Assembly (NCBI GenBank): GCA_036787775.1
Contig: DAIQOR010000003.1
Location: forward strand, 9,466-73,465
Source of the DNA: a bacterium
GTDB lineage: Archaea > Nanobdellota > Nanobdellia > Pacearchaeales > GW2011-AR1
Reading direction: 5' to 3'
DNA length: 64,000 bases
In this document: positions 2,883-58,253 of the stretch, in pieces
Position numbering within the stretch: the stretch's first letter is position 1
How the letters are laid out: every line of letters starts with the position of its first letter
Translations under genes and position numbers: made by a program
The notes under the pieces: model-generated
What the model saw: the letters and a program-made list of their open reading frames with translations, nothing else
What the model was told of the DNA's origin: nothing
Database searches by the model: none

Positions 2883-4730
2883 ATGAGAACAATAATATTT
2901 TTAGTTTTTGGAATATTTATTTTAATTAGTTTGAATTTTGTCTTTGGTGCGAGTATTGAAGATGTTGGAAGTGTTGTTGATATGGATAAGGCGGAATTGC
3001 AAGGAGAGGGAGTTGATTATTCTATTCTTAACGAGGCTGAGACGAGAGAAAATGGTGCGGTGGTTTCGATTAAGATTGTTGATGAAGATGGAAGTTTTTG
3101 TGTTAGAGGAAATTGTTATGAAAATATTGATAAAAGTAAAACAAATTATTTTGATTTAGATGCTGAGGGAAATATTGTGAGTGCGAGTTTTGTGACAACT
3201 GGCGAAGGGAATTATACTCTTGGAGAAGATGAATATTTTTTGCCTAAGGGGACGAGTGTTGAATTTAGGGAAGGGAAGGCTGTTTTGAGTGGGGATGGTG
3301 ATTTTAAGATAAGAAAAGATGGATGCAAAGACCAATCAATATCATTTATAGAAAGGTTTCGGGAAGGAGATTTAATTATAGAGAATATGAAAGGTTGTGA
3401 AAGAAGACTTAAATCACGACAGATTATTTTTTTAATTAATAATGATTCATATTATTGTGGTTTTTGTGATGTTACCTTGGACGAATATGGAAGATTGCAA
3501 AAAATTGAAAAGGGAACTAGATTAGTTGGGGGCCCCCCTAAATTTTATAATTTTCGTCATGAATCTGTTAATCAAAACACCAATTTTTATTATAATTCAA
3601 ATTTTAATCCTGAAGAACATGAAAATGAAAATTATATAAATATTGATGGGAATAAATGGAGTATCGGCGGAGAAAATTTAAAGGTTGATTTTGGACCAAC
3701 ATCTAGTTTATTTTTAGGCATTGATGAGTCCTTTACTTTTTTTGAATTGACTGCTTCTGGGAAAACTAATATCTATGTTGATAATGGGAAGATTCGCGTG
3801 GACTCCTTTGGATATTCTGATTTAGAAACAGAAAATTTAAATGTTTTTACGTCTAATAATGGAAAAATCTTTAAGAAAATAATGAGTAATACCTATAATG
3901 AAGTTGGAGAAGATGTCTCTAAAGCAGATATGTTGATTACAACTTTTAATGAACATGAAAATATTGTTTCAACCATGAATGTCGATAAAGAAGGAAGTAT
4001 TTTTTCTGAAGAGGGGGATTTTTCTTTGTATTCTTCTCCGGCAACAGATACTATTGTGTCTCCTGATGAAAGATTGAATAAGTTTGAAGATAGAGATAAG
4101 GCAAGAGAGCAATTGAGGAATGAGGGGATAACTGATGAAAGGAGACAAGCTTATCTTCCAGAGGTGAGCGAATTTCTTTATAAACATATTAATGCCATTT
4201 GCGATTATGAAAATTATAATCTTGGGTTTGTAAATAATTTGGTTGGGGCTTTTGAAAATAATGAGGATCATTGTATTTCTTTTTGGGAAAGAAAAATCGC
4301 TAAAGGGGGGAGTTATGTTCCAGAAGATTTGTTACGAGCTTATATGGGATTGCCTCAAAAATATGGATCTCTTGGAGTTTCAGATTATCAACCTTCTATA
4401 AGTACCGAAAACAAATATTATTATAAGGTGAATAATTTTATTTCTGGGGAAAATATTAATTTTCTTTTAGAACGAATAAGTTTGGGGGAGGGTGATGAGA
4501 TAATTGAAAGAAAAAGCGGAGATTCAATTGTTTTTGGAGGAACTTTGGGAAAATATACTTTATCTCGGGGGAAAGATTCTTGTGGTTTTTATATTTCATA
4601 TTATGATATTTGGGATTTAGAACCGAATCTGTTGGAGGGTTTTGTTGGCAAGCCGTTTGAATTGTATGACCGAGTTTATTATGAACCTCTTACGTATGAA
4701 ATAATTGAAAATCCTTGTGGGAATGAATAG
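2883..4730 (+). CDS. large secreted protein, paralog 1 (signal peptide, unknown family)
   Basis: N-terminal signal peptide MRTIIFLVFGIFILISLNFVFGA; shares N- and C-terminal modules with 5509..7335; 615 aa. Confidence 0.6.
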   Translation: MRTIIFLVFGIFILISLNFVFGASIEDVGSVVDMDKAELQGEGVDYSILNEAETRENGAVVSIKIVDEDGSFCVRGNCYENIDKSKTNYFDLDAEGNIVSASFVTTGEGNYTLGEDEYFLPKGTSVEFREGKAVLSGDGDFKIRKDGCKDQSISFIERFREGDLIIENMKGCERRLKSRQIIFLINNDSYYCGFCDVTLDEYGRLQKIEKGTRLVGGPPKFYNFRHESVNQNTNFYYNSNFNPEEHENENYINIDGNKWSIGGENLKVDFGPTSSLFLGIDESFTFFELTASGKTNIYVDNGKIRVDSFGYSDLETENLNVFTSNNGKIFKKIMSNTYNEVGEDVSKADMLITTFNEHENIVSTMNVDKEGSIFSEEGDFSLYSSPATDTIVSPDERLNKFEDRDKAREQLRNEGITDERRQAYLPEVSEFLYKHINAICDYENYNLGFVNNLVGAFENNEDHCISFWERKIAKGGSYVPEDLLRAYMGLPQKYGSLGVSDYQPSISTENKYYYKVNNFISGENINFLLERISLGEGDEIIERKSGDSIVFGGTLGKYTLSRGKDSCGFYISYYDIWDLEPNLLEGFVGKPFELYDRVYYEPLTYEIIENPCGNE

Positions 4731-4777
4731 TTTAATTCTTAGAAAAGGTTTTTATATAAGAATTTGTTTAGTTAGTT

Positions 4778-5497
4778 ATGAAAAAAAGAGGACAGGTTAC
4801 TATTTTTATAATTGTGGCAATTGTGATAATTGTTGCGGGGGCGATAATTTTTTTTGTAAATCAAAAATCTAATTCTGCAATTAATTTGCAAGGTGATGAA
4901 GTTGGTTTGAGGGTTGAAAGTTGTTTGGAGAACTCTTTGGCTTTGGCGATTGTTTCTAATTCTCTTCAGGGAGGATATTTTGATTCCGAAGAATCTGGTT
5001 ATTATTTTGAGGATGGGAAATCTAATGTTCCTTCAAAAGAGGATTTGGAAAATAATTTATTGCTGGGCGTCGAGGGTATTTTCGGAAGTTGTTTGAATTT
5101 TTCTGATTTGCCTGGTGAGGTGAAATATGATTTGGAGAGAGCTATTTTTAAAATTGAAGGTGAAAATAATCTTATTAAAATTAATTTAAGATTGCCTATT
5201 ACTTTGAAGATGGATGATTCTTCTTTGGTGGTTGATGAGTTTAGTTCAGAGATTGAGACGGATTATTTTAATTTTTATAATGTTGCGGTTGAACTAACTC
5301 AGGAGCAGGAAAAACATGTTGATGAAATTTGTTTGAGTTGTGCGACGGATATTGCTGGACGAGAAAGAGTTTCAATTGTTTCTTTAGAAGGACAGAAAGA
5401 GGGAAATGATATTTTGATTTATACAATTTCAAAAGATAGAGAGGATGTTTTTAATCCATTGTTTATCTTTAAGCATAAATTTAAATTAGTGGAATAG
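4778..5497 (+). CDS. archaeal type IV pilin-like protein (class III signal peptide)
   Basis: MKKRGQ followed by a ~20-aa hydrophobic stretch VTIFIIVAIVIIVAGAIIFF, resembling a prepilin peptidase KG/Q cleavage site; 239 aa. Confidence 0.55.
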   Translation: MKKRGQVTIFIIVAIVIIVAGAIIFFVNQKSNSAINLQGDEVGLRVESCLENSLALAIVSNSLQGGYFDSEESGYYFEDGKSNVPSKEDLENNLLLGVEGIFGSCLNFSDLPGEVKYDLERAIFKIEGENNLIKINLRLPITLKMDDSSLVVDEFSSEIETDYFNFYNVAVELTQEQEKHVDEICLSCATDIAGRERVSIVSLEGQKEGNDILIYTISKDREDVFNPLFIFKHKFKLVE

Positions 5498-5508
5498 TTA
5501 ATAGGATT

Positions 5509-7335
5509 ATGAAATTTAGAGGATTATTTTTGTTTTTGTTTATTTTAATTAGTTTGAATTTTGTCTTTGGTGTGAGTATTGAAGATGTTGAAAGTTTGAT
5601 TGATCAGGAAAAAGCACAATTGCAAGGTCAAGGTATTGAATATATTATTTTTAACGAGGCTGAGACGAGAGAAAATGGTGCGGTGGTTTCGATTAAGATT
5701 GTTGATGAAGATGGAAGTTTTTGTGTTAGAGGAAATTGTTATGAAAATATTGATAAAAGTAAAACAAATTATTTTGATTTAGATGCTGAGGGAAATATTG
5801 TGAGTGCGAGTTTTGTGACAACTGGCGAAGGGAATTATACTCTTGGAGAAGATGAATATTTTTTGCCTAAGGGGACGAGTGTTGAATTTAGGGGAGGGAA
5901 GGTTGTTTTTGTTGGGAACGGAGATGTGGTAATAAACACAAAAGAAAATAAAAAATTTAATTTATTGTTGAATCCTGGTGTAAATGTTGAGGTGGAATTT
6001 TTGGAAAGGGGGAAAATGGTTTTTAGTGGAAGAGTGTTTACAATTAATGGATATTCTGGTGGTTCTTTGTCTTCAGAAGAACAAATTTCTATAATTTTTG
6101 ACAATCTTGGAAGAGTGTTGAGAGTTGAAGGAAAAGGTTTTATGCTTGGAGATGTAAGGGATTTTTCTTTAAATAATAAAGATTATTTGAATTTTTATTA
6201 TGGAGCAGATTTTAATATTTCAGCTCATAAAGATGAAAATTATTTTTATGAGGATTTGACAAGTGGGGTTTTGTATGCTGGAGGAGATTATTATTTGACT
6301 GAGCATTATGTTACCCGTTCGGGATTTAAGAGTATTTTTAGTTTAGTCCCGAATGGAAATGTTGAGATATCTAAGGGGAGGGGGTTAGCGAGAGTTTTAT
6401 GTGAGGGTTCTACAATTATTAATTCTGGTTATTTTAACACCTTGAGGATTTCTGAGGATGGGAAAATTTTTAAGAGATTTAATAGGGGATCTTTTTTTGG
6501 GAAATCTGAAGAAGAAATAAATCAAGAGGAGATTGATTTAGAGGTTGTAGTTAAATCTGGGGATGAATCTTCAAATTTAAACTATGATGGAACAAATAAT
6601 GTTTATTCTTCTGAGGGAGAGGATTTTTCTTTGTATTCTCTTCCAGCAAGAGACACTATTGAAGCGTCTGATGAGAGATTGAATAAATTTGAGGATAGAG
6701 AACGTGATAAACAATATTTTTTGGAACATGGAATAACTCCTGAATTAGAAAGAGGGTATGTTCCTAAAGTTAGTGAATGGTGGCAAGAAAATTTTAATCC
6801 TGCAGGAGATTATGTCTATGATTTAGCTACGCAGGATCCTATACAATTTATTAGAAATTTTAATGATAGGTTTAAAAGGGGGGCTACAGCATTTACTCAG
6901 GGAACTTCAACAGGAAGAGAAGATGCTTGGAGATTGTATTTGGGGATGCCCCAACAAGATAATACTTTTTCAATTTCAAAATATCAACCTTCGATAAGCT
7001 CGGAAAATAGATATTATTATAAAATAAATGAGTTTAGTGAGTTTGAAAATGTTCAACAAGTTTTATATAGAATCTCTCAAGGTGGAAAATCCAGAATTAA
7101 TGTAGACTCAGTTGTGATTCCAGATATGGGGGGGGCAGAGGGAGGAGTTGGTTTAAGAGACTATACACTTTCAAAAGGAAAAGATTCTTGTGGTTTTTAT
7201 ATTTCATATTATGATAAATGGGATCTGACTCCGAATAAGTTGGAAGGTTTTTTCGGAACACCTTTGGAAATTTATGATAGAATTTATTATGATCCAATTA
7301 CTTATGAGAAAATTGAAAATCCTTGCGGAAACTGA
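5509..7335 (+). CDS. large secreted protein, paralog 2
   Basis: Signal peptide; 243 nt (5651..5893) 100% identical to 3028..3270; C-terminal KDSCGFYISYYD..YDR.YY.P.TYE.IENPCGN shared with paralog 1; 608 aa. Confidence 0.6.
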   Translation: MKFRGLFLFLFILISLNFVFGVSIEDVESLIDQEKAQLQGQGIEYIIFNEAETRENGAVVSIKIVDEDGSFCVRGNCYENIDKSKTNYFDLDAEGNIVSASFVTTGEGNYTLGEDEYFLPKGTSVEFRGGKVVFVGNGDVVINTKENKKFNLLLNPGVNVEVEFLERGKMVFSGRVFTINGYSGGSLSSEEQISIIFDNLGRVLRVEGKGFMLGDVRDFSLNNKDYLNFYYGADFNISAHKDENYFYEDLTSGVLYAGGDYYLTEHYVTRSGFKSIFSLVPNGNVEISKGRGLARVLCEGSTIINSGYFNTLRISEDGKIFKRFNRGSFFGKSEEEINQEEIDLEVVVKSGDESSNLNYDGTNNVYSSEGEDFSLYSLPARDTIEASDERLNKFEDRERDKQYFLEHGITPELERGYVPKVSEWWQENFNPAGDYVYDLATQDPIQFIRNFNDRFKRGATAFTQGTSTGREDAWRLYLGMPQQDNTFSISKYQPSISSENRYYYKINEFSEFENVQQVLYRISQGGKSRINVDSVVIPDMGGAEGGVGLRDYTLSKGKDSCGFYISYYDKWDLTPNKLEGFFGTPLEIYDRIYYDPITYEKIENPCGN

Positions 7336-7481
7336 TTAATTTTTTTGTTTTATCGTCGGGAAATTTATTTTTTCGTATTAATAACCTTAGTGCACAAACC
7401 GCAGGTGGCCTGAAAGAAATTAGTTGGAAAAAATAGGGAAATAGAAAGATTTTAAATAAGATTATTTCTTGGTTTAATTAT

Positions 7482-7556
7482 GCCTCGGTAGCTCAGCCTG
7501 GATAGAGCACTAGCCTTCTAAGCTAGGGGTCGCAGGTTCAAATCCTGTTCGGGGCA
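7482..7556 (+). tRNA. tRNA-Arg (anticodon TCT)
   Basis: Acceptor gcctcgg/tcggggc (two G-U), anticodon stem ctagc/gctag with loop cttctaa, T-arm gcagg-ttcaaat-cctgt; 75 nt. Confidence 0.75.
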
Positions 7557-7558
7557 TT

Positions 7559-7631
7559 GCGCGGGTGGCACAGCGGCTACTGCGCTTCCCTGCAGAGGAA
7601 GTTTCCGTGGGTTCGAGTCCCACCCCGCGCT
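7559..7631 (+). tRNA. tRNA-Cys (anticodon GCA)
   Basis: Acceptor gcgcggg/cccgcgc perfect, anticodon stem cttcc/ggaag with loop ctgcaga, T-arm gtggg-ttcgagt-cccac; lies 2 nt after tRNA-Arg. Confidence 0.7.
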
Positions 7632-7652
7632 TAATTTACGAGAACCCGGTTC

Positions 7653-7749
7653 GACGAGCAACTCTGAAATTTCGAATAAATGAGCAACGAAAATAAAAAG
7701 CGAATTTAAAGAATATTTCACGGGTTGGGAGCACCATCCCCGCGCTTAA
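7653..7749 (+). repeat. tRNA-associated element fragment (second-half module) plus degenerate direct repeat of the tRNA-Cys 3' end
   Basis: 7653..7734 is ~80% identical to the reverse complement of 54318..54399; 7738..7749 ccccgcgcttaa repeats 7623..7634; the preceding ~20 nt mimic the Cys T-arm. Confidence 0.7.
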
Positions 7750-10523: not shown

Positions 10524-10555
10524 AAAAAATAAATGGCTCTGAAGAGAATTTAACT
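10524..10555. repeat. direct repeat copy of the tRNA-Met 3' end plus flank (32-nt exact copy of 10638..10669)
   Basis: aaaaaataaatggctctgaagagaatttaact occurs at 10524..10555 and 10638..10669. Confidence 0.85.
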
Positions 10556-10647
10556 ACAACTCAATCATTGAAAAGTTGTCATTAATATTTTATTTTGCAC
10601 TTTCCAATAATTTCGCGACCTCTGTCGGTCTCGAGTTAAAAAATAAA

Positions 10648-10719
10648 TGGCTCTGAAGAGAATTTAACTCTCGACCTCTGCCTCATGAGAGCAGCGCTCT
10701 AACACTGAGCTACAGAGCC
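10648..10719 (-). tRNA. tRNA-Met (anticodon CAT), elongator type (G1-C72)
   Basis: Reverse complement folds: acceptor ggctctg/cagagcc, anticodon stem ctgct/ggcag with loop ctcatga, T-arm gagag-ttaaatt-ctctt (unusual T-loop lacking C56); 72 nt. Confidence 0.7.
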
Positions 10720-12570: not shown

Positions 12571-12873
12571 TTGGGGATTAGTTTTTTTATGGTTGTAGTA
12601 ATTTCTGGTGAAGGTTATGATGAATTATTAGACGCATATTTTAAAGGAGAGGTGGCACCTTATTATGAGATTAGTGCAGATTTTGAACAAAAAAGATTTC
12701 TTTTATCAAATATAAAAACAACACTTTCTATCTATTTTACTGAAAAAGGAGTTTTAGTTAAGAAAAGAGTGCCGGGGGATAAAAGATCTGGATTAGAATT
12801 TTTGAGTTTAAATGATTTGAATGCGCTTACAGGATGGGGTGTTCCAAGTAGTAATCAGGAAATTAAGGTTTAA
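12571..12873 (+). CDS. hypothetical protein
   Basis: 100-aa ORF, no recognisable motif; start uncertain. Confidence 0.3.
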   Translation: MGISFFMVVVISGEGYDELLDAYFKGEVAPYYEISADFEQKRFLLSNIKTTLSIYFTEKGVLVKKRVPGDKRSGLEFLSLNDLNALTGWGVPSSNQEIKV

Positions 12874-13381
12874 TCCACTTAACCTCGTAATATGTGACAT
12901 CGCTTTCTTCGTCAAGAATTGCTATTAGAAGGTTCTTTTTTGTGGAATGTGCTACTCGGTTTTTTGCAGAGAATTCGTGCCAGGTTGATTTTTTAGATTC
13001 GTGTTCGACGAAGACAATCCATTGTGCGTGTTTCTTTCCAGGTTTTGCGCCTTTTTCGTAAACTCTAAAGTCCGCACCGAATTTTAATGCGGTTTTTACA
13101 ATGTAACCTTTTTCTCTTAAATCTTTGTAGATGGGATATTTGATTTGGAACTTTTTATCTATCTTGTTGAATTTTTTTATGACCTCGGTTTTTGCGAGTT
13201 TTTTGTTTCCTTGAATTATTTCGAGTTTTTCGGTTTCAACTAAGAAGTATGCTTCTGATAAACTGTATTGAATTTTGTCGCCGACTTGTTCTCCGAGCGC
13301 GGATTTTTTTGATAGTCCCATCGCGAGTGGGTCGTTGCTCTGGACAATTTCTCCGATTAAGTGTGCTTGTATTTTTTTCAT
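12863..13381 (-). CDS. endA: tRNA-splicing endonuclease (EndA)
   Basis: YFLVETEKL, YKDLREKGYIVKTALKFGADFRVYEKG...HAQWIVFV matches the EndA catalytic domain; 172 aa. Confidence 0.8.
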   Translation of the reverse strand: MKKIQAHLIGEIVQSNDPLAMGLSKKSALGEQVGDKIQYSLSEAYFLVETEKLEIIQGNKKLAKTEVIKKFNKIDKKFQIKYPIYKDLREKGYIVKTALKFGADFRVYEKGAKPGKKHAQWIVFVEHESKKSTWHEFSAKNRVAHSTKKNLLIAILDEESDVTYYEVKWIKP

Positions 13382-31407: not shown

Positions 31408-31479
31408 GGGCCTATAGTTCAGTGGATAGAATAACAGGTTTCGGCCCTGTTGACCGAGGTTCGAATCCTCGTAGGCTCA
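31408..31479 (+). tRNA. tRNA-Arg (anticodon TCG)
   Basis: Acceptor gggccta/taggctc, anticodon stem acagg/cctgt with loop tttcggc, T-arm cgagg-ttcgaat-cctcg; 72 nt. Confidence 0.7.
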
Positions 31480-31496
31480 TTTGAATTTGAACCGGT

Positions 31497-31574
31497 GGTT
31501 TCGTTTTACCACGCTTGGGAGAACGAGCGAGCGACTTGTTCGCGACGCCGAATCCTCGTAGGCTCATTTGAATT
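31497..31574 (+). repeat. tRNA-associated element core (53 nt) plus 25-nt direct repeat of the tRNA-Arg 3' end
   Basis: 31497..31549 is 51/53 identical to the reverse complement of 54400..54452; 31550..31574 is an exact copy of 31463..31487. Confidence 0.85.
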
Positions 31575-31681
31575 TTTTAAAAATAAATTCACAAATAACT
31601 TTTTATACTGGTTTGTTTTTATTTTGTTATGAAAGAAGTAAATCAAATATTTTCATACTTTCATTTTAGGGGGAATTTAAA

Positions 31682-53845: not shown

Positions 53846-54259
53846 TTATGCCGCGAAATTCTGTCTGAGATAATCATCTCTTGCCATGAATCTTTGGGAT
53901 AATTCATTACAAATTTTTACTAAATATTCTAATTTTTCTTCGGGGAGTTTGGGGGTATGAACTGAATTTAATTCTTGATAGAGAAGTTTGGCTTGAACTT
54001 TTGCATTATTCCAATCTCTGTATTCTTCCATTTTAGAAGGATTTTCTTTAGCGTCTTTTTCAATTAATTCTATATACATATCAGTTATTATTGAACTTAT
54101 TCCTTCTGTCATAAAATTTATTGAATTCTTATTTTTATATTCTCTTCGAATTAATTTTTTTAATTTTTTTAGTTGTGCAAAACCATTTCCCCTACCTAAT
54201 TTATAGTTATCTATTTCAGTTCCTGCAGAACACGCAATTTCAGCTAATTCTAAACTCAT
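53846..54259 (-). CDS. hypothetical protein
   Basis: 137 aa, alpha-helical, no motif. Confidence 0.35.
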   Translation of the reverse strand: MSLELAEIACSAGTEIDNYKLGRGNGFAQLKKLKKLIRREYKNKNSINFMTEGISSIITDMYIELIEKDAKENPSKMEEYRDWNNAKVQAKLLYQELNSVHTPKLPEEKLEYLVKICNELSQRFMARDDYLRQNFAA

Positions 54260-54303
54260 TCAGAAAATAGTTGTTTTGTGTTTATAAAAATTGTTGTGAT
54301 AAG

Positions 54304-54452
54304 AACGTCCCGAGAAGTGCTCTCAATCCGTGAAATGTTCTTTAAATTCGCTTGTTAAATTTTCTCGCTCTTTTATTAGAAATTTCAGAATTGCTCGTCG
54401 GCGTCGCGAACAAGTCGCTCGCTCGCTCTCCCAAGTGTGGTAAAACGAAACC
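54304..54452. repeat. tRNA-associated element (repeat of the tRNA-Asn 3' end, second-half module, 53-nt core); near-complete copy
   Basis: 54304..54317 repeats 54477..54490; 54318..54399 is ~80% identical to the reverse complement of 7653..7734; 54400..54452 is 51/53 identical to the reverse complement of 31497..31549. Confidence 0.85.
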
Positions 54453-54478
54453 TAAGGTTCTCGTCCTATTTTTAAAAA

Positions 54479-54551
54479 CGTCCCGAGAAGGACTCGAACC
54501 TTCGACCTAACGGTTAACAGCCGTTCGCTCTACCGACTGAGCTATCGGGAC
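54479..54551 (-). tRNA. tRNA-Asn (anticodon GTT)
   Basis: Reverse complement: acceptor gtcccga/tcgggac, anticodon stem aacgg/ccgtt with loop ctgttaa, T-arm gaagg-ttcgagt-ccttc. Confidence 0.75.
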
Positions 54552-54601
54552 ATGAAAATCTTACAGCAAATTTCCTTTTAAAGTTTATCTTTTCGGGACG
54601 T

Positions 54602-55102
54602 TTACTCTCTTAATCCTAAATCTTCTATAGGAGGGGTTTTGTTCCTTTCAGCACGAGAATATACATTTGTTTGTTTTGAGCCTTGCACGATTTCTATTAT
54701 CGCGTCTTGCGCGTTTTTTATTAGTTCGGGGTTTCCGATTATTCCGACTTTGTTTTCATTTATTTCTAAATTGCATCCAGTTAAGTTTGAGATTGTTTTC
54801 AAGGTTTTTCCTTCTTTTCCAATTATTCTTCCTCGGATTCTTTCGTAGTTTTGTTTTGTGGTGTAATCTTTTACGTTAAGTATTTCGAATTCTTTTTCTT
54901 CTTTTTTTATTGAAACTGCGTAGGAGAATGGGAATCCGAAGTTTATTGCGTCGATGACTTTTTCTGCGATGTATTCATCTTCGGGCGAGCCTTCTATGTT
55001 TACTTCTTTTCCTCGGTTTGTTATTTTGATGTTCAAAATTTTTTCGAGTTTTTTCTTGTTCTTTATAATTCTTGGGAGTTTTTCAGATATTATTGTTCTC
55101 AT
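54602..55102 (-). CDS. KH-domain RNA-binding protein (Dim2/Pno1-like)
   Basis: Two KH GxxG loops (IIGKEGKTLK; IIGNPELIKNA). Confidence 0.65.
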   Translation of the reverse strand: MRTIISEKLPRIIKNKKKLEKILNIKITNRGKEVNIEGSPEDEYIAEKVIDAINFGFPFSYAVSIKKEEKEFEILNVKDYTTKQNYERIRGRIIGKEGKTLKTISNLTGCNLEINENKVGIIGNPELIKNAQDAIIEIVQGSKQTNVYSRAERNKTPPIEDLGLRE

Positions 55103-55144
55103 GAATAATAGGAGAATAAAGGTGTTATAAGGTTTTTGATTGAT

Positions 55145-55489
55145 TCAGAATTCAGTTTTCGTTGTTTCAAGGTAGCCGTGTTTTTTTAGCCATTGAATTT
55201 GATTTGGTTTGTATTTTAGTAAAACGTCTCCTTTTGTGTTGTCGAGTTCCCAAGGTTCGATGATTACGACGTCGTTTGGTCTTAGCCACAATTTTCTTCT
55301 GAGTCTTCCGGGAACTCTGCAGTTTCTTGTTTTTCCATCGACGCAGGCGACCATCATTTTGTTTCCGCCGAGTCTTTGGTCAATTGTTCCGAGAACTTCT
55401 CTTCCTTTCGGCAAGGGCACTCTAATTCTTATTTCGCCTTCAGGAGAATCTAATAGTTCATCCTCGATGTCTTTGAATTCTTCTTCCAT
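55145..55489 (-). CDS. eif1a: translation initiation factor 1A (aIF1A)
   Basis: S1-like OB: GTIDQRLGGNKMMVACVDGKTRNCRVPGRLRRKLWLRPNDVVII. Confidence 0.85.
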   Translation of the reverse strand: MEEEFKDIEDELLDSPEGEIRIRVPLPKGREVLGTIDQRLGGNKMMVACVDGKTRNCRVPGRLRRKLWLRPNDVVIIEPWELDNTKGDVLLKYKPNQIQWLKKHGYLETTKTEF

Positions 55490-55530
55490 ACTAAATCAGG
55501 GAAAATGTATTTTATAAAGATATTGAATTA

Positions 55531-55830
55531 TTAAGCAAGAATTAGTGCGTAAGGCATGCCGTTGATTGTTTTGACGTTTTCTTTTGAGATTATGTTTTCT
55601 TTGATTGCGAGTGCGGTTGATTTTTTTCCGATGATATTGAATGTCGCGTCTTCTTTCGCCATGCTTTGTATGATTTGCGAAGTTTCTTCTTCGTTTTTTA
55701 GTTCGCCTTTATAGAAAGATTCTTTTGCGTCCAGTTGCAGGTTGCCTTCTTCGAATTTTTTCCCGAGAATTTCCGAATCGCATATTGCCACAATATTTCG
55801 GCAAGTCTCAATAATGTTTACGTAGAACAT
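55531..55830 (-). CDS. DUF424 family protein
   Basis: VAICDSEILGKKFEEGNLQLDAKESFY matches the DUF424 signature. Confidence 0.55.
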   Translation of the reverse strand: MFYVNIIETCRNIVAICDSEILGKKFEEGNLQLDAKESFYKGELKNEEETSQIIQSMAKEDATFNIIGKKSTALAIKENIISKENVKTINGMPYALILA

Positions 55831-55894
55831 GTTAATTTGAATGTCCTACGCTTTAAAAATATTTAGAAAAAATAAAATAAAAATAAAAAGGAAA

Positions 55895-56086
55895 TTAGAA
55901 AGCTTTTTTAGCGCCTTCTTTGATTGCTTTTTCAGCGTTGTCTTTGGACATCATCGCACACATGTTGCATCCACAAGATTTACATGCGCCTTTAGCCATA
56001 TAGCCCCCACGAGCAGTTTGAACAACTTCTGGGTTTTTCATGTCTTGACCTTTTTTCTTACATTTTACACAATAAGCTTTTACCAT
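55895..56086 (-). CDS. small Cys-rich zinc-ribbon-like protein (63 aa)
   Basis: Start taken at MVKAYCVKC, which has aggagg 6 nt upstream; CxxC...CxxCGC pattern. Confidence 0.45.
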   Translation of the reverse strand: MVKAYCVKCKKKGQDMKNPEVVQTARGGYMAKGACKSCGCNMCAMMSKDNAEKAIKEGAKKAF

Positions 56087-56178
56087 TTTTGCCTCCTTGA
56101 ATTTAATTATAGATTCATTGAATCTCTTAAATTTCATAAGGGAAATTCTTTTTTAAAGGTTTAGATTGGGAAAAAAAA

Positions 56179-56589
56179 TTAGATTTTACTTCTGACAGAG
56201 TGTTTTGCACCACACGCCAAACAATTTATGAAAGTTAATCTGTCTTCTTTTTTTAGTTCAGTGTCGGGTTTTCCGCATTCTTTGCATATCACAAATTCTT
56301 TTGTGTATTGTTCAATTTTTTGATTTATTTTAGCACTCGGGACTTTATTATTAAATATTAATCTGTCGCCTTCGATTTGTCCTTGGGTCGCTAATTCTCT
56401 TAATAGGAATTTTTGAAAATGTTCTGGTTGTCTTCTAAGATGAGATGCGATTTGCGAGAAGTTTGTTAAAATTGTTTTTTTGCCTTCAAAATGTCCTTGA
56501 ATTTTTGGGATTTCGAATCTTTCGCCCGACGTGTTTGATTGTTTCACTTTGCTGTATGCTTCTTCTAAAAGTTTTTCGTAGTCTGTCAT
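56179..56589 (-). CDS. eif2b: translation initiation factor 2 beta subunit (aIF2-beta)
   Basis: C-terminal Zn ribbon CKECGKPDTEL...CLACGA. Confidence 0.85.
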   Translation of the reverse strand: MTDYEKLLEEAYSKVKQSNTSGERFEIPKIQGHFEGKKTILTNFSQIASHLRRQPEHFQKFLLRELATQGQIEGDRLIFNNKVPSAKINQKIEQYTKEFVICKECGKPDTELKKEDRLTFINCLACGAKHSVRSKI

Positions 56590-56700
56590 AAGAATTAAAG
56601 ATTGAGAGGGTTTTTAAGATTTGGGTTTGGGAAAATTGCTCGCTGTCGCGAGAGATTGATTGCTACGAGTTCGCAGGGGATTTCTTTGTAGGGAATATAA

Positions 56701-56979
56701 TTAATGAGAAATTGGTTTTTGTTCTTTAGTGCTTTCTCCTAAAAATGATTTGGCAGCGATAACTTCCAATAATATTTCATCACTACAAATAAATGTTCTG
56801 TAAATCCAACCTTTACTTTCAAATTTCCTGATGATTTCTTCAGGGCATCTGGTTTCTTTCTCAAATTTTCTTTCGTAAGTTCTCATAAGATTTTCTTCCG
56901 TAATTTTTCTAATCTCCTCAAGATATCTTTGGTCAGTTCCCCTTTTTGAAATATGATAATTTTTTAAGTGCATTTTCAA
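56701..56979 (-). CDS. hypothetical protein
   Basis: 92 aa; 4-nt overlap with the upstream RPA-like gene. Confidence 0.35.
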   Translation of the reverse strand: MKMHLKNYHISKRGTDQRYLEEIRKITEENLMRTYERKFEKETRCPEEIIRKFESKGWIYRTFICSDEILLEVIAAKSFLGESTKEQKPISH

Positions 56980-57602
56980 CCAAGGTACCTCAATTTTCCA
57001 GGTCGGGGTTCGAAGATGATTCCTTCTTCGAGGAGTTTTTTGATTTCTTGATTAATTATTTCTGGCGAGGTGTTTCTGAGAGTCATTATCATTTTGTCTA
57101 TTTCTATCCCTCCGTCTTCTTCTGATTCTTTTATTGCGTTGAGTATTTGGTCTTTGATTGCGACGATTTGTCCTTTTTCAACGGGCGGGGCGATTTGCGA
57201 TTGTTGTTTTTGCAATTCGAGTTTTCTTATGAGAAGGTATTTTTGGCTGTATTCTTTTATTATTTCAGGTGTTATGTAGACTTCGTTGTTGAAGCTTCTT
57301 AGGGAGCCGATTACTAAAACGGTTTGGCCTTGTGTGAAGTTTTTGAATTTTTCGAAGTCGTCGCCGAACACTCTTAGTTTGATTTGTCCCGAGCCGTCGT
57401 CGAGTGTGAAGAAAACGTATTTTTTTTCGCCTTGATTTTCATATTTGTCGACGATGTTTCCGATTAAATTTGCTCGGTTGATTTTTTTGTCGCCGAGTTC
57501 CAAATATATGAATTTTTCTTGGTCGAACGCGGGTTTTCCAAGTAGTAAGTCGTTGATTCGAAGTTTGAATGCTATGTTTCTTTTAAATTGTGCGTCAGAC
57601 AT
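56976..57602 (-). CDS. RPA-like single-stranded DNA-binding protein (OB fold plus C-terminal winged helix)
   Basis: OB-fold segment ANLIGNIV...VFFTLDDGSGQIKLRVFGD...VLVIGSLRSFNNEVYIT; C-terminal wH. Confidence 0.55.
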   Translation of the reverse strand: MSDAQFKRNIAFKLRINDLLLGKPAFDQEKFIYLELGDKKINRANLIGNIVDKYENQGEKKYVFFTLDDGSGQIKLRVFGDDFEKFKNFTQGQTVLVIGSLRSFNNEVYITPEIIKEYSQKYLLIRKLELQKQQSQIAPPVEKGQIVAIKDQILNAIKESEEDGGIEIDKMIMTLRNTSPEIINQEIKKLLEEGIIFEPRPGKLRYLG

Positions 57603-57713
57603 ATTATGAAATAATCGCGTTCATTTATAAGTTTTTATGAGGTTTTTTAGATTGATTAAATTGCTCGCTGAGAGAAAATTTTTGAGAATTAAATTAATGG
57701 AGGTTCAACTCAA

Positions 57714-57822
57714 TCGTGAGCCAAAGATAAAGAGTAAAGAGTTAGTAAAGAGGACACTTTAAAACCCCCGACCACTCGCCCCTAAAATGTAGAAATTGTT
57801 GTAAATACGAAGTGAGCCGCCT
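57714..57822. repeat. left arm of ~110-nt imperfect inverted repeat
   Basis: Blocks tcgtgagcca, aaagaggacacttta, agaaattgttgt, gtgagccgcc recur in reverse complement and the same order at 59253..59352. Confidence 0.75.
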
Positions 57823-58016
57823 TGGTGCTTCGCACATTTACTCTCGCTTTCAGCGAGGCAGAAAAACTTCTTTTATCCGACCAAAGAAAACTCACGAAAT
57901 TAAAATTTCGTTTAACAAAGGATAAAAGGCTTCGCCCAAATTTTTCTGATTTTATTGGGGCACTCTCAAAACAAAAAAGAAAGCTTTTTATATGGGCTTT
58001 AATCTATATATTTATA

Positions 58017-58253
58017 ATGGCAAAAAAGAAAATTCAACCAAGCACAATATTTTTTTGGATAGCAGGAATATTTTTATTTGTTCTTGTGGCAAAGATTTTT
58101 GGAATATTGCCTATGTCCGTTGTTGGAGTAGAATTAGGACAAGAGGGAATTAAAGCAACAATCTCTGATATTTCTGAAACAACAGCAGTTTTATTGTTTA
58201 TTCCAATTGTTTCGGCATTAATTGGAGCATACTTAAAATCAAAAGGAAAATAA
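58017..58253 (+). CDS. small membrane protein (2 TM), hypothetical
   Basis: Start taken at MAKKKIQPS; the longer ORF-track start lies inside the inverted repeat. Confidence 0.4.
   Translation: MAKKKIQPSTIFFWIAGIFLFVLVAKIFGILPMSVVGVELGQEGIKATISDISETTAVLLFIPIVSALIGAYLKSKGK

Follow-up and report, generated by a model that had tools for sequence, protein, structure and literature searches.

Miniature non-coding inserts behind tRNA genes of Pacearchaeota and their possible mobilisation in trans

Introduction

Genes for tRNA are targeted by archaeal and bacterial integrative elements of the SSV, pNOB8 and pTN3 types, which use tyrosine integrases (Reiter 1989 and Williams 2002, as cited in PMC9897764). 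Partial tRNA genes are an accepted footprint of integration and are common in archaea as attR remnants (PMC9897764). CIMEs are remnants of integrative elements that have lost the integrase but still possess attL and attR (PMC5704250).

The inserts described here resemble the integrative elements in being flanked by an intact tRNA gene on one side and by a duplicated piece of that gene's 3' portion on the other. In the copies that we call core-type, the repeat starts in the T-loop, which is the classic sublocation, and empty sites, tandem arrays and inversions are likewise common to both (PMC5495485). Size and content differ, integrative elements spanning 5-100 kb with their own integrase, whereas the inserts span 60-160 bp and contain no ORF. 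Moreover, near-identical inserts carry locus-specific repeats, and no integrase was found in the DNA that we searched. To our knowledge, every described element that lands in tRNA genes is large and has its own integrase, and every known element that duplicates tRNA 3' ends uses an integrase of the tyrosine type.

On sequence grounds, we describe here a family of miniature (60-160 bp), non-coding and putatively hairpin-ended inserts at the 3' ends of Pacearchaeota tRNA genes.

Results

Anatomy of the insert behind tRNA-Asn

The window, by which we mean the whole 64-kb stretch of DNA analysed, is a low-GC (~33%) housekeeping region of a DPANN archaeon. It encodes MCM, TBP, TFB, Alba, eIF-1A and tRNase Z, together with several aminoacyl-tRNA synthetases and a tRNA-splicing endonuclease. 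The KH-domain protein adjoining tRNA-Asn is identical to an NCBI protein from 'Candidatus Pacearchaeota archaeon', and the same DNA as the window is present in many groundwater metagenome contigs. ARAGORN and Rfam identify six tRNA genes in the window, namely Leu, Arg(TCT), Cys, Met, Arg(TCG) and Asn.

The tRNA-Asn gene, the 3' terminus of which reads cttctcgggacg on the minus strand, is followed by a non-coding insert of 159 nt, and both bounding repeats are exactly cttctcgggacgtt (14/14; Table 1). When the locus was aligned to the window by blastn, 54398..54452 matched 31497..31551 with 96% identity over 55 nt (E 8e-22), and 54317..54400 matched 7652..7734 with 87% identity over 85 nt (E 5e-14). 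A first-pass annotation of this DNA had placed a core, a module and a 14-nt repeat at tRNA-Asn, and blastn and exact strings confirm all three to the base. The Asn copy is the most complete one of the window and combines a core unit with a module unit. Since the opening of the module, gacgagcaattc, is a divergent version of the left-end motif, the insert looks like two related units in tandem. The invariant 24-mer agcgagcgacttgttcgcgacgcc is here followed by the module, whereas in core-type copies elsewhere it forms the right terminus. The left end (tttaaaaataggacgag...) is not complementary to the right ends (...gagagca or ...gcgacgcc), so that terminal inverted repeats are absent, and no ORF lies within any of the inserts.

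Table 1. Positions of the tRNA-Asn insert, its parts and the other inserts in the window
Feature	Position	Strand	Basis or remark
tRNA-Asn(GTT) gene, intact, without encoded CCA	54478..54552 (ARAGORN); 54479..54551 (Rfam tRNA, 74.7 bits)	-	
Asn repeat copy 1, cttctcgggacgtt, 12 nt of tRNA end plus 2 nt of flank	54477..54490	-	blastn, sequence readout
Asn leader, 24 nt, A/T-rich, plus left-end motif (tttaaaaata-ggacgagaacc-tta)	54453..54476	-	sequence, alignment
Asn core unit, 53 nt	54400..54452	-	96% identity to Arg(TCG) insert; blastn, nhmmer
Invariant 24-mer agcgagcgacttgttcgcgacgcc inside Asn core	54400..54423	-	identical in PFCU01 and L139
Asn module unit, 82 nt	54318..54399	-	87% identity to Cys insert; ~85% to L147 tRNA-Asn insert
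Asn repeat copy 2, cttctcgggacgtt	54304..54317	-	followed by flank that directly adjoins tRNA in empty-site strain
Third, inverted copy of tRNA-Asn 3' end, cttttcgggacgttt, 14/15	54589..54603	+	overlaps stop codon of KH-domain gene
Arg(TCG) repeat 1, 27 nt	31462..31488	+	
Arg(TCG) insert, core-type, 60 nt	31489..31548	+	
Arg(TCG) repeat 2	31549..31575	+	
Cys repeat 1, 12 nt	7623..7634	+	
Cys insert, left end plus module, 103 nt	7635..7737	+	
Cys repeat 2	7738..7749	+	
Met repeat 1, 32 nt	10638..10669	-	
Met insert, 82 nt	10556..10637	-	
Met repeat 2	10524..10555	-	

Other inserts within the window

Exact repeats of the gene's own 3' end follow four of the six tRNA genes, with lengths of 14 nt at Asn, 27 nt at Arg(TCG), 32 nt at Met and 12 nt at Cys. 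As an empirical null, 3000 random anchors were drawn from the AT-rich window and a repeat was searched for within 400 nt. Repeats of at least 12, 14 and 20 nt were found at 2.0%, 0.6% and 0.2% of these anchors, respectively, part of this tail being the real elements themselves. Measured against these frequencies, the occurrence at four of six tRNA genes is far beyond chance.

Each copy lies directly behind an intact tRNA gene, the last 10-32 bp of which reappear after the insert. The repeats share nothing between loci, and 0-10 nt of their 10-32 nt are locus-specific flank outside the tRNA. Inserts that are 87-96% identical are thus bounded by unrelated repeats (cttctcgggacgtt, cgaatcctcgtaggctcatttgaattt, ccccgcgcttaa) including locus-specific flank, which makes a single attP impossible. 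The first-pass annotation had derived one attP from tRNA-Cys, with a short crossover core shared by the other tRNAs, and this proposal is not supported. The supposed mimicry of a tRNA-Cys T-arm by the element's end fares no better, with p = 0.075 against tRNA-Cys and no significance against the other tRNAs. To rescue an integrase model, tRNA-specific lineages homogenised by gene conversion are needed.

The Met insert bears a marginal likeness to the other inserts (local alignment p ~0.02), is not matched by the module HMM, and by alignment appears to be a distant relative at best. It is doubled in tandem (repeat-insert-repeat-insert-repeat) in L010 and L014, two independent assemblies. The idea of one family of tRNA-targeting elements stands, with homologous inserts behind several tRNAs, here and in other Pacearchaeota.

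Distribution in related Pacearchaeota

The family spans four or more Pacearchaeota species and includes inserts at Asn, Arg, Cys, Val, Gly and Met tRNA genes. Every copy seen points the same way relative to its tRNA. Homology links the inserts at different tRNAs, and strains and species differ in which sites are occupied. A species-level scan, in which a core 21-mer was compared with one genome per species, returned two copies, both in Ca. Pacearchaeota archaeon CG10_big_fil_rev_8_21_14_0_10_30_48 (PFCU01). One is a 76-nt insert with a 21-nt repeat at tRNA-Asn, and the other an insert of ~110 nt with an imperfect repeat at tRNA-Val(GAC). In a metagenome pattern scan with GCGACTTGTTCGCGACGCC, three of the ~120 loci listed are real copies, the listing being dominated by chance matches in high-GC soil contigs. 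The one new copy, of the core type, is located on contig L139, with its tRNA beyond the contig. At tRNA-Gly(TCC), L139 has a different insert of 110 nt with an 11-nt repeat, which holds a degenerate core, has a 14-mer in common with the Met insert and is composite in architecture, comparable to the Asn insert. Searches with nhmmer and a covariance model of the hairpin gave no further copies in ~200 kb of related Pacearchaeota DNA.

In the sister species (L147 and L170), the KH protein is 76% identical to that of the window. L147 has an insert made of the left end and the module at tRNA-Asn, and its module and promoter are ~85-88% identical to those of the window, compared with 60-68% at third codon positions of the neighbouring genes. 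L170 has a core-type insert at tRNA-Arg(TCG), the left end of which agrees with the window copy at 14 of 15 positions; its interior is different and ~90% like that of L139. Repeat 2 of this insert keeps TAGGCTCA, the sequence of the window tRNA, whereas the L170 tRNA itself now reads TACGCTCA, with a compensating change in the 5' strand. Repeat 2 therefore preserves the ancestral acceptor sequence, and the Arg insertion is older than that substitution and probably older than the species split. Being old and orthologous in L170, the Arg insert implies that copies can persist without obvious recent movement.

Junctions and terminal hairpin

The core-type copies (window Arg, PFCU01 Asn and Val, and L139) end in the invariant 24-mer, which is joined directly to a repeat starting at C56 of the T-loop. 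Across three genomes, this arrangement is seen with four different tRNA repeats. The 24-mer is retained with 100% identity even where the KH proteins of the genomes agree at only ~46% of positions. It can be drawn as a 4-bp stem (GCGA/TCGC) with a 5-nt loop and two outer C-G pairs (CG..CG). In L170, the stem GGAT/ATCC replaces GCGA/TCGC by three compensatory pairs, and the flanks CGAG...GACG are kept. All cells (100%) remain paired, and the observed covariation score was reached by 3 of 500 shuffles. Because it rests on one variant lineage, this covariation is suggestive rather than conclusive, and since all stem pairs are of the Watson-Crick type, it fits an RNA hairpin and a DNA hairpin equally.

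On the left, the junction is irregular, and 0-13 nt of A/T-rich sequence stand before the motif GA(C/T)GAGAACC or CTCGAACC. This motif recurs in the Cys, L147-Asn, L026-Asn, Met and L139-Gly inserts, and the Arg copy begins inside it. The repeat length of core-type copies varies from 17 to 32 nt; in module-type copies, the repeats are shorter, at 10-14 nt, and the right junctions are more irregular. The folding energy of whole inserts is not exceptional (z -1.6 and +1.1). With Rfam 15, only tRNAs were matched at the gathering threshold, and nothing inside the inserts was matched at E<=5.

Empty sites and patchy occupancy

The tRNA-Asn locus was compared among contigs encoding the identical KH protein. 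Three such alleles equal that of the window, and the fourth, on the sister-strain contig L004, is an empty site. In L004, tRNA-Asn is directly followed by ttcttatcacaac... (ttcttatcac...), so that exactly the 159-nt insert and one repeat are absent, with base precision. The empty site for which the first-pass annotation had called thus exists. Identity between L004 and the window is 99.86% upstream of tRNA-Asn and 91.5% downstream, implying that the tRNA end is also a recombination breakpoint. The polymorphism between L004 and the window may reflect allele exchange, not a recent insertion or excision.

The tRNA-Asn site is occupied in the window species, L147 and PFCU01, and empty in L004 and in two further species groups (L157-162 and L163-168), where tRNA-Asn adjoins the KH gene with no insert. 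The tRNA-Val site has an insert in PFCU01 and is empty in the window species, with the same convergent gene next to it in both. When the genes of each species are counted separately, a downstream repeat of the 3' end is found at 9 of the 14 tRNA genes examined in five genomes. The first-pass annotation would have given up its reading if the same loci were occupied everywhere, with no empty sites and no intact parent element. The Arg insert, orthologous and old, goes part of the way in that direction, but empty sites exist.

Inversion at tRNA-Asn

In L147, the whole cassette of promoter, tRNA and insert stands in the opposite orientation, and its repeat 2 abuts the same KH stop codon. Together with the third copy of the Asn end at this stop codon in the window (Table 1), the difference in orientation implies that the cassette was inverted, with breakpoints in the CGGGACGT core. 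The orientation of tRNA-Asn flips repeatedly among species. Inversion between att sites in opposite orientation is a reaction that integrases catalyse (PMC5495485).

Further REARRANGEMENTS at these sequences comprise the tandem doubling at Met, the inverted third copy of the Asn end and the inversion of the cassette.

Search for a mobilising enzyme, a parent and earlier descriptions

The first-pass annotation had proposed a search for integrase genes and full-length elements, and neither was found in the 64-kb window, in the flanks of related loci or in viral, phage and plasmid collections. Among the ~40 ORFs of the window, no integrase, transposase, Cas1 or RT was detected with Pfam, PHROGs and NCBIfam, and the Pfam-annotated flanks of related loci (~200 kb) contain no recombinase, transposase, Cas1 or RT. 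Neither the window nor the related loci hold a cargo-bearing or intermediate-size copy or a full-length parent. In IMG/VR, exact-pattern scans for the core and module sequences, for the 19-mer hairpin and for the 3' ends of three tRNAs gave 0 matches, and the element had no blastn match in phage and plasmid collections. A literature search returned no description of such elements.

Several candidate identities were considered and rejected. The protein downstream of tRNA-Cys, which by eye resembled the N-terminus of an IS protein or integrase, is a class II aminoacyl-tRNA synthetase according to Pfam. The module does not qualify as a C/D-box sRNA, the box spacing being unfit on inspection, or as a decayed tRNA pseudogene, for which comparison with six tRNAs on both strands gave p ~0.01-0.02 among 60 tests and cmscan gave no tRNA-like signal. 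The left end was also read as an inverted copy of the T-arm specific to each locus, which comes down to the generic GGTTC/GAACC palindrome of the T-loop. The 24-mer might have been coding (antisense GVANKSLA, a possible integrase fragment), but the frames are not consistently open; since the L170 variant changes by compensatory base pairs, structure is favoured over coding.

Discussion

As far as comparative alignment can establish it, copies of the family have been gained or lost, have persisted for long and have exchanged internal segments. To our mind, the chances are about even that they are miniature non-autonomous elements specific for tRNA 3' ends, which a site-specific enzyme would move in trans. 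For this enzyme, a tyrosine-type integrase may be proposed tentatively as the most likely class. Encoded in the genome or on an extrachromosomal element, the enzyme would insert, excise, duplicate and invert the non-autonomous copies, presumably by recognising both the terminal hairpin of the element and the T-arm/acceptor end of the tRNA gene. Recombination between resident copies could then shuffle the interiors and give rise to the core-only, module-only and core-plus-module forms.

We rank the trans-moved miniature elements first because the tandem doubling at Met and the inversion fit the chemistry of a recombinase. An 87-bp circle, as would be released from the Arg copy, lies at the lower limit for recombinase-mediated excision, which speaks against this explanation. 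Further evidence against it is that the searched DNA contained neither the enzyme nor a parent, that near-identical inserts have locus-specific repeats, that the Arg insert is old, and that the empty site of L004 coincides with a recombination breakpoint.

An alternative that we regard as unlikely is that the inserts are inert scars. A kilobase-scale, tRNA-specific plasmid or virus would have been internally deleted at each locus, gene conversion would keep the remnants alike, and nothing would move now. The frequency of attR-remnant partial tRNA copies in archaea (PMC9897764) agrees with this, and the Arg insert, orthologous and old in two species with its interior swapped, is in keeping with conversion. 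Neither the window nor the flanks of related loci yielded a mobilising gene, and precise loss via the 14-nt repeats could yield the empty site. However, independent decay would not repeatedly give remnants of 60-110 bp that share a left motif and, across five loci in three to four species, attach the identical 24-mer to one and the same T-loop base. The complete conservation of this 24-mer across a distance at which the KH proteins are 46% identical, as well as the compensatory change in the hairpin, also speaks against decay, and no intermediate-size or cargo-bearing copy was seen.

A target-duplicating insertion without an integrase would make the repeats genuine duplications of the target, although we hold it to be decidedly unlikely. 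A nick of one strand in the T-loop (T55/C56) and a nick of the other strand, at varying distance beyond the tRNA end, would be followed by gap filling, which would duplicate the 3' end. The element might be joined or copied in through a target-primed, hairpin-ended small RNA or ssDNA, or by copy-choice repair on the conserved T-loop. In accord with such a route, the repeats consist of target sequence and take in 0-10 nt of flank unique to the locus, and their length in core-type copies varies from 17 to 32 nt. The right junction is exact in element and target, the left one is uneven and contains 0-13 nt of filler rich in A/T, and the Arg copy appears truncated at its 5' side. Orientation is fixed, and the structured 3' terminus is conserved with covariation. 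Taken together, these features are the signature of target-primed insertion in non-LTR and SINE biology. We know of no prokaryotic precedent for target-primed insertion of this kind, however, and an RT, HUH or other nuclease was not identified in the DNA searched. In addition, module-type right junctions are also ragged, inversion and tandem doubling are more natural for a recombinase or homologous recombination, and junction microhomology does not exceed 1 nt. By extension, it seems improbable that the inserts represent an as yet undescribed class of prokaryotic mobile element with a target-duplicating, orientation-specific, non-att mechanism, in which the hairpin would be the recognition element (an archaeal 'SINE', or a copy-choice product).

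It is distinctly improbable that the hairpin and the tRNA-end copy are host features, selected to act in cis or as a small RNA in trailer processing, termination or as a decoy. In favour of a function, the module and the promoter are more conserved between the window and L147 than third codon positions, the 24-mer is invariant across distant genomes with covariation of the stem, in two species the conserved GGTTTCG of the Asn copy is preceded by A/T-rich TATA-like boxes, and the insert at tRNA-Arg has persisted for long. Nevertheless, the inserts are dispensable, as the empty sites in the sister strain and several species demonstrate, and the interiors differ between orthologous copies. The unexceptional folding energy and the lack of an Rfam match also weigh against a function, and the T run right after the tRNA should end transcription before most copies.

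Finally, it is scarcely credible that the segment from repeat 1 to repeat 2 is a T-loop intron cut out by the archaeal splicing endonuclease via a BHB motif, even though the endonuclease gene lies in the window (12863..13381), the neighbouring tRNA-Arg(TCT) has an intron polymorphism and removal of one period would restore the tRNA, because the tRNA is complete without splicing, a BHB is missing from the junctions in MFE folds of tRNA plus insert, the T-stem mimicry required of the core-type right end (GACGCC) is lacking, and with both splice sites in identical repeats the central 4-bp helix would need self-complementarity.

If the inserts are indeed miniature elements moved in trans, a ~100-bp family at 9 of 14 tRNA genes examined would be the smallest tRNA-targeting element known. 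Its hosts are genome-reduced DPANN archaea, in which few mobile elements are recognised. The inserts would explain stray partial tRNA genes in such metagenome-assembled genomes, and they mark breakpoints of recombination, inversion and assembly at tRNA loci. The hairpin and its junction with the T-loop provide a tractable handle for finding the responsible enzyme. Should the mechanism be target-duplicating rather than att-based, it would constitute a new prokaryotic mode of transposition, with a bearing on how archaeal tRNA genes became interrupted or split (PMC3293823).

Comparison with known systems

Among small or decayed elements, CIMEs are like the inserts in being non-autonomous and in having att-like repeats at a tRNA 3' end, with an integrase in trans proposed (PMC5704250). 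They are kilobase-sized and bacterial, and each can be traced to a parent ICE or IME that occupies the same site, whereas no parent of the inserts was found in the DNA searched. The inserts, by contrast, constitute a multi-locus, multi-species family of ~100 bp with a conserved terminal hairpin. MITEs and PATEs, which are miniature IS derivatives, the latter palindrome-associated and of the IS200/IS605 type, are similarly small, non-coding, multi-copy and mosaic, with subterminal hairpins; MITEs, however, have terminal inverted repeats and a short fixed target duplication, whereas the inserts have no such repeats and duplicate 10-32 nt. The asymmetric geometry of the inserts, with the left hairpin ~12 nt inside and the right one ~6 nt from the end, resembles the ends of IS200/IS605. 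Elements of the IS200/IS605 type produce no target duplication, while every insert copy is flanked by one and is strictly specific for the tRNA 3' end.

Casposons integrate at tRNA 3' ends, as the inserts do, and duplicate ~14-15 bp of their target, a length that only the Asn copy, with its 14-nt repeat, shares. As self-synthesising transposons that depend on Cas1 (PMC4779613), they have terminal inverted repeats, Cas1, a polymerase and a near-constant duplication, as opposed to inserts with no such inverted repeats, no ORF and repeats of 10-32 nt. From SINE-like retroposition the inserts differ in that an RT was not identified here and that there is no poly-A or tail repeat. The likeness to it is one of pattern only, and consists in the fixed orientation, the exact structured 3' junction, the ragged 5' junction, the variable duplications and a presumed dependence on an enzyme acting in trans.

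Recombination at tRNA ends

In these populations, the ends of tRNA genes serve as recombination breakpoints. Alignment of window positions 53979..58102 with L004, a sister strain whose tRNA-Asn carries no insert, gives an identity of 99.86% upstream and 91.5% downstream, with the step located exactly at the 3' end of tRNA-Asn. The comparison of L157 and L162, two strains of another species, demonstrates that the downstream flank is common to both, whereas tRNA-Asn and its upstream region differ. A T-arm-like palindrome, ctcGGTTCGAACCtc, was also observed in the sister species contig L170 (5815..5830, minus strand), upstream of the tRNA-Arg(TCG) promoter, and it may be a further relic of recombination at tRNA ends.

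Within the window, the 12-mer TTTTTAAAAATA has just two copies, one at the Asn locus and one at the Arg(TCG) locus (see table). Its presence at both may reflect either a shared history or a common terminator or TATA motif.

Positions of the 12-mer copies and of tRNA-Arg(TCT) in the window
Feature	Position	Description
TTTTTAAAAATA, copy 1	54467..54478	left end of the Asn insert
TTTTTAAAAATA, copy 2	31574..31585	Arg locus flank, directly after repeat 2
tRNA-Arg(TCT)	7481..7557	without intron

Strain variation at tRNA-Arg(TCT)

The intron of tRNA-Arg(TCT) is a presence/absence polymorphism inside one population: the gene is uninterrupted in the window, and in one strain contig it is split at the canonical 37/38 position by a 40-nt insertion, aaaatcgctagcgggtttttataatcccgcagccgaaga (L007, about 5900..5940). 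Between tRNase Z and this gene, window 2883..7335 holds three successive ORFs of 615, 239 and 608 aa, for which searches of Pfam, PHROG and NCBIfam returned zero matches. In one strain contig, L008, a 98-aa ORF lies directly upstream of tRNA-Arg(TCT) in DNA unlike that of the window, and the 4.5-kb block is therefore strain-variable.

Neighboring genes and base composition

In L026 (PFCU01), the tRNA-Asn insert is followed directly by a small antitoxin-like ORF of 78 aa and a RelE/ParE-like ORF of 127 aa (6195..6684), and in strain L017 a ParE/DUF7557 pair stands in place of other genes close to the Arg locus. Immediately outside window position 1, a 2424-aa ORF without a Pfam match adjoins tRNA-Leu and TFB (L153, 11089..18363).

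Across the whole window, the GC skew is very strong (+0.4 to +0.5) in all regions of plus-strand genes and close to 0 in regions of minus-strand genes; G is strongly enriched over C on the coding strands.

Consequences for assembly

Several assemblies (L022, L023 and L024) break within the core of the Arg locus, presumably because this core recurs at the Asn locus. The inserts of this family fragment metagenome assemblies at tRNA loci.
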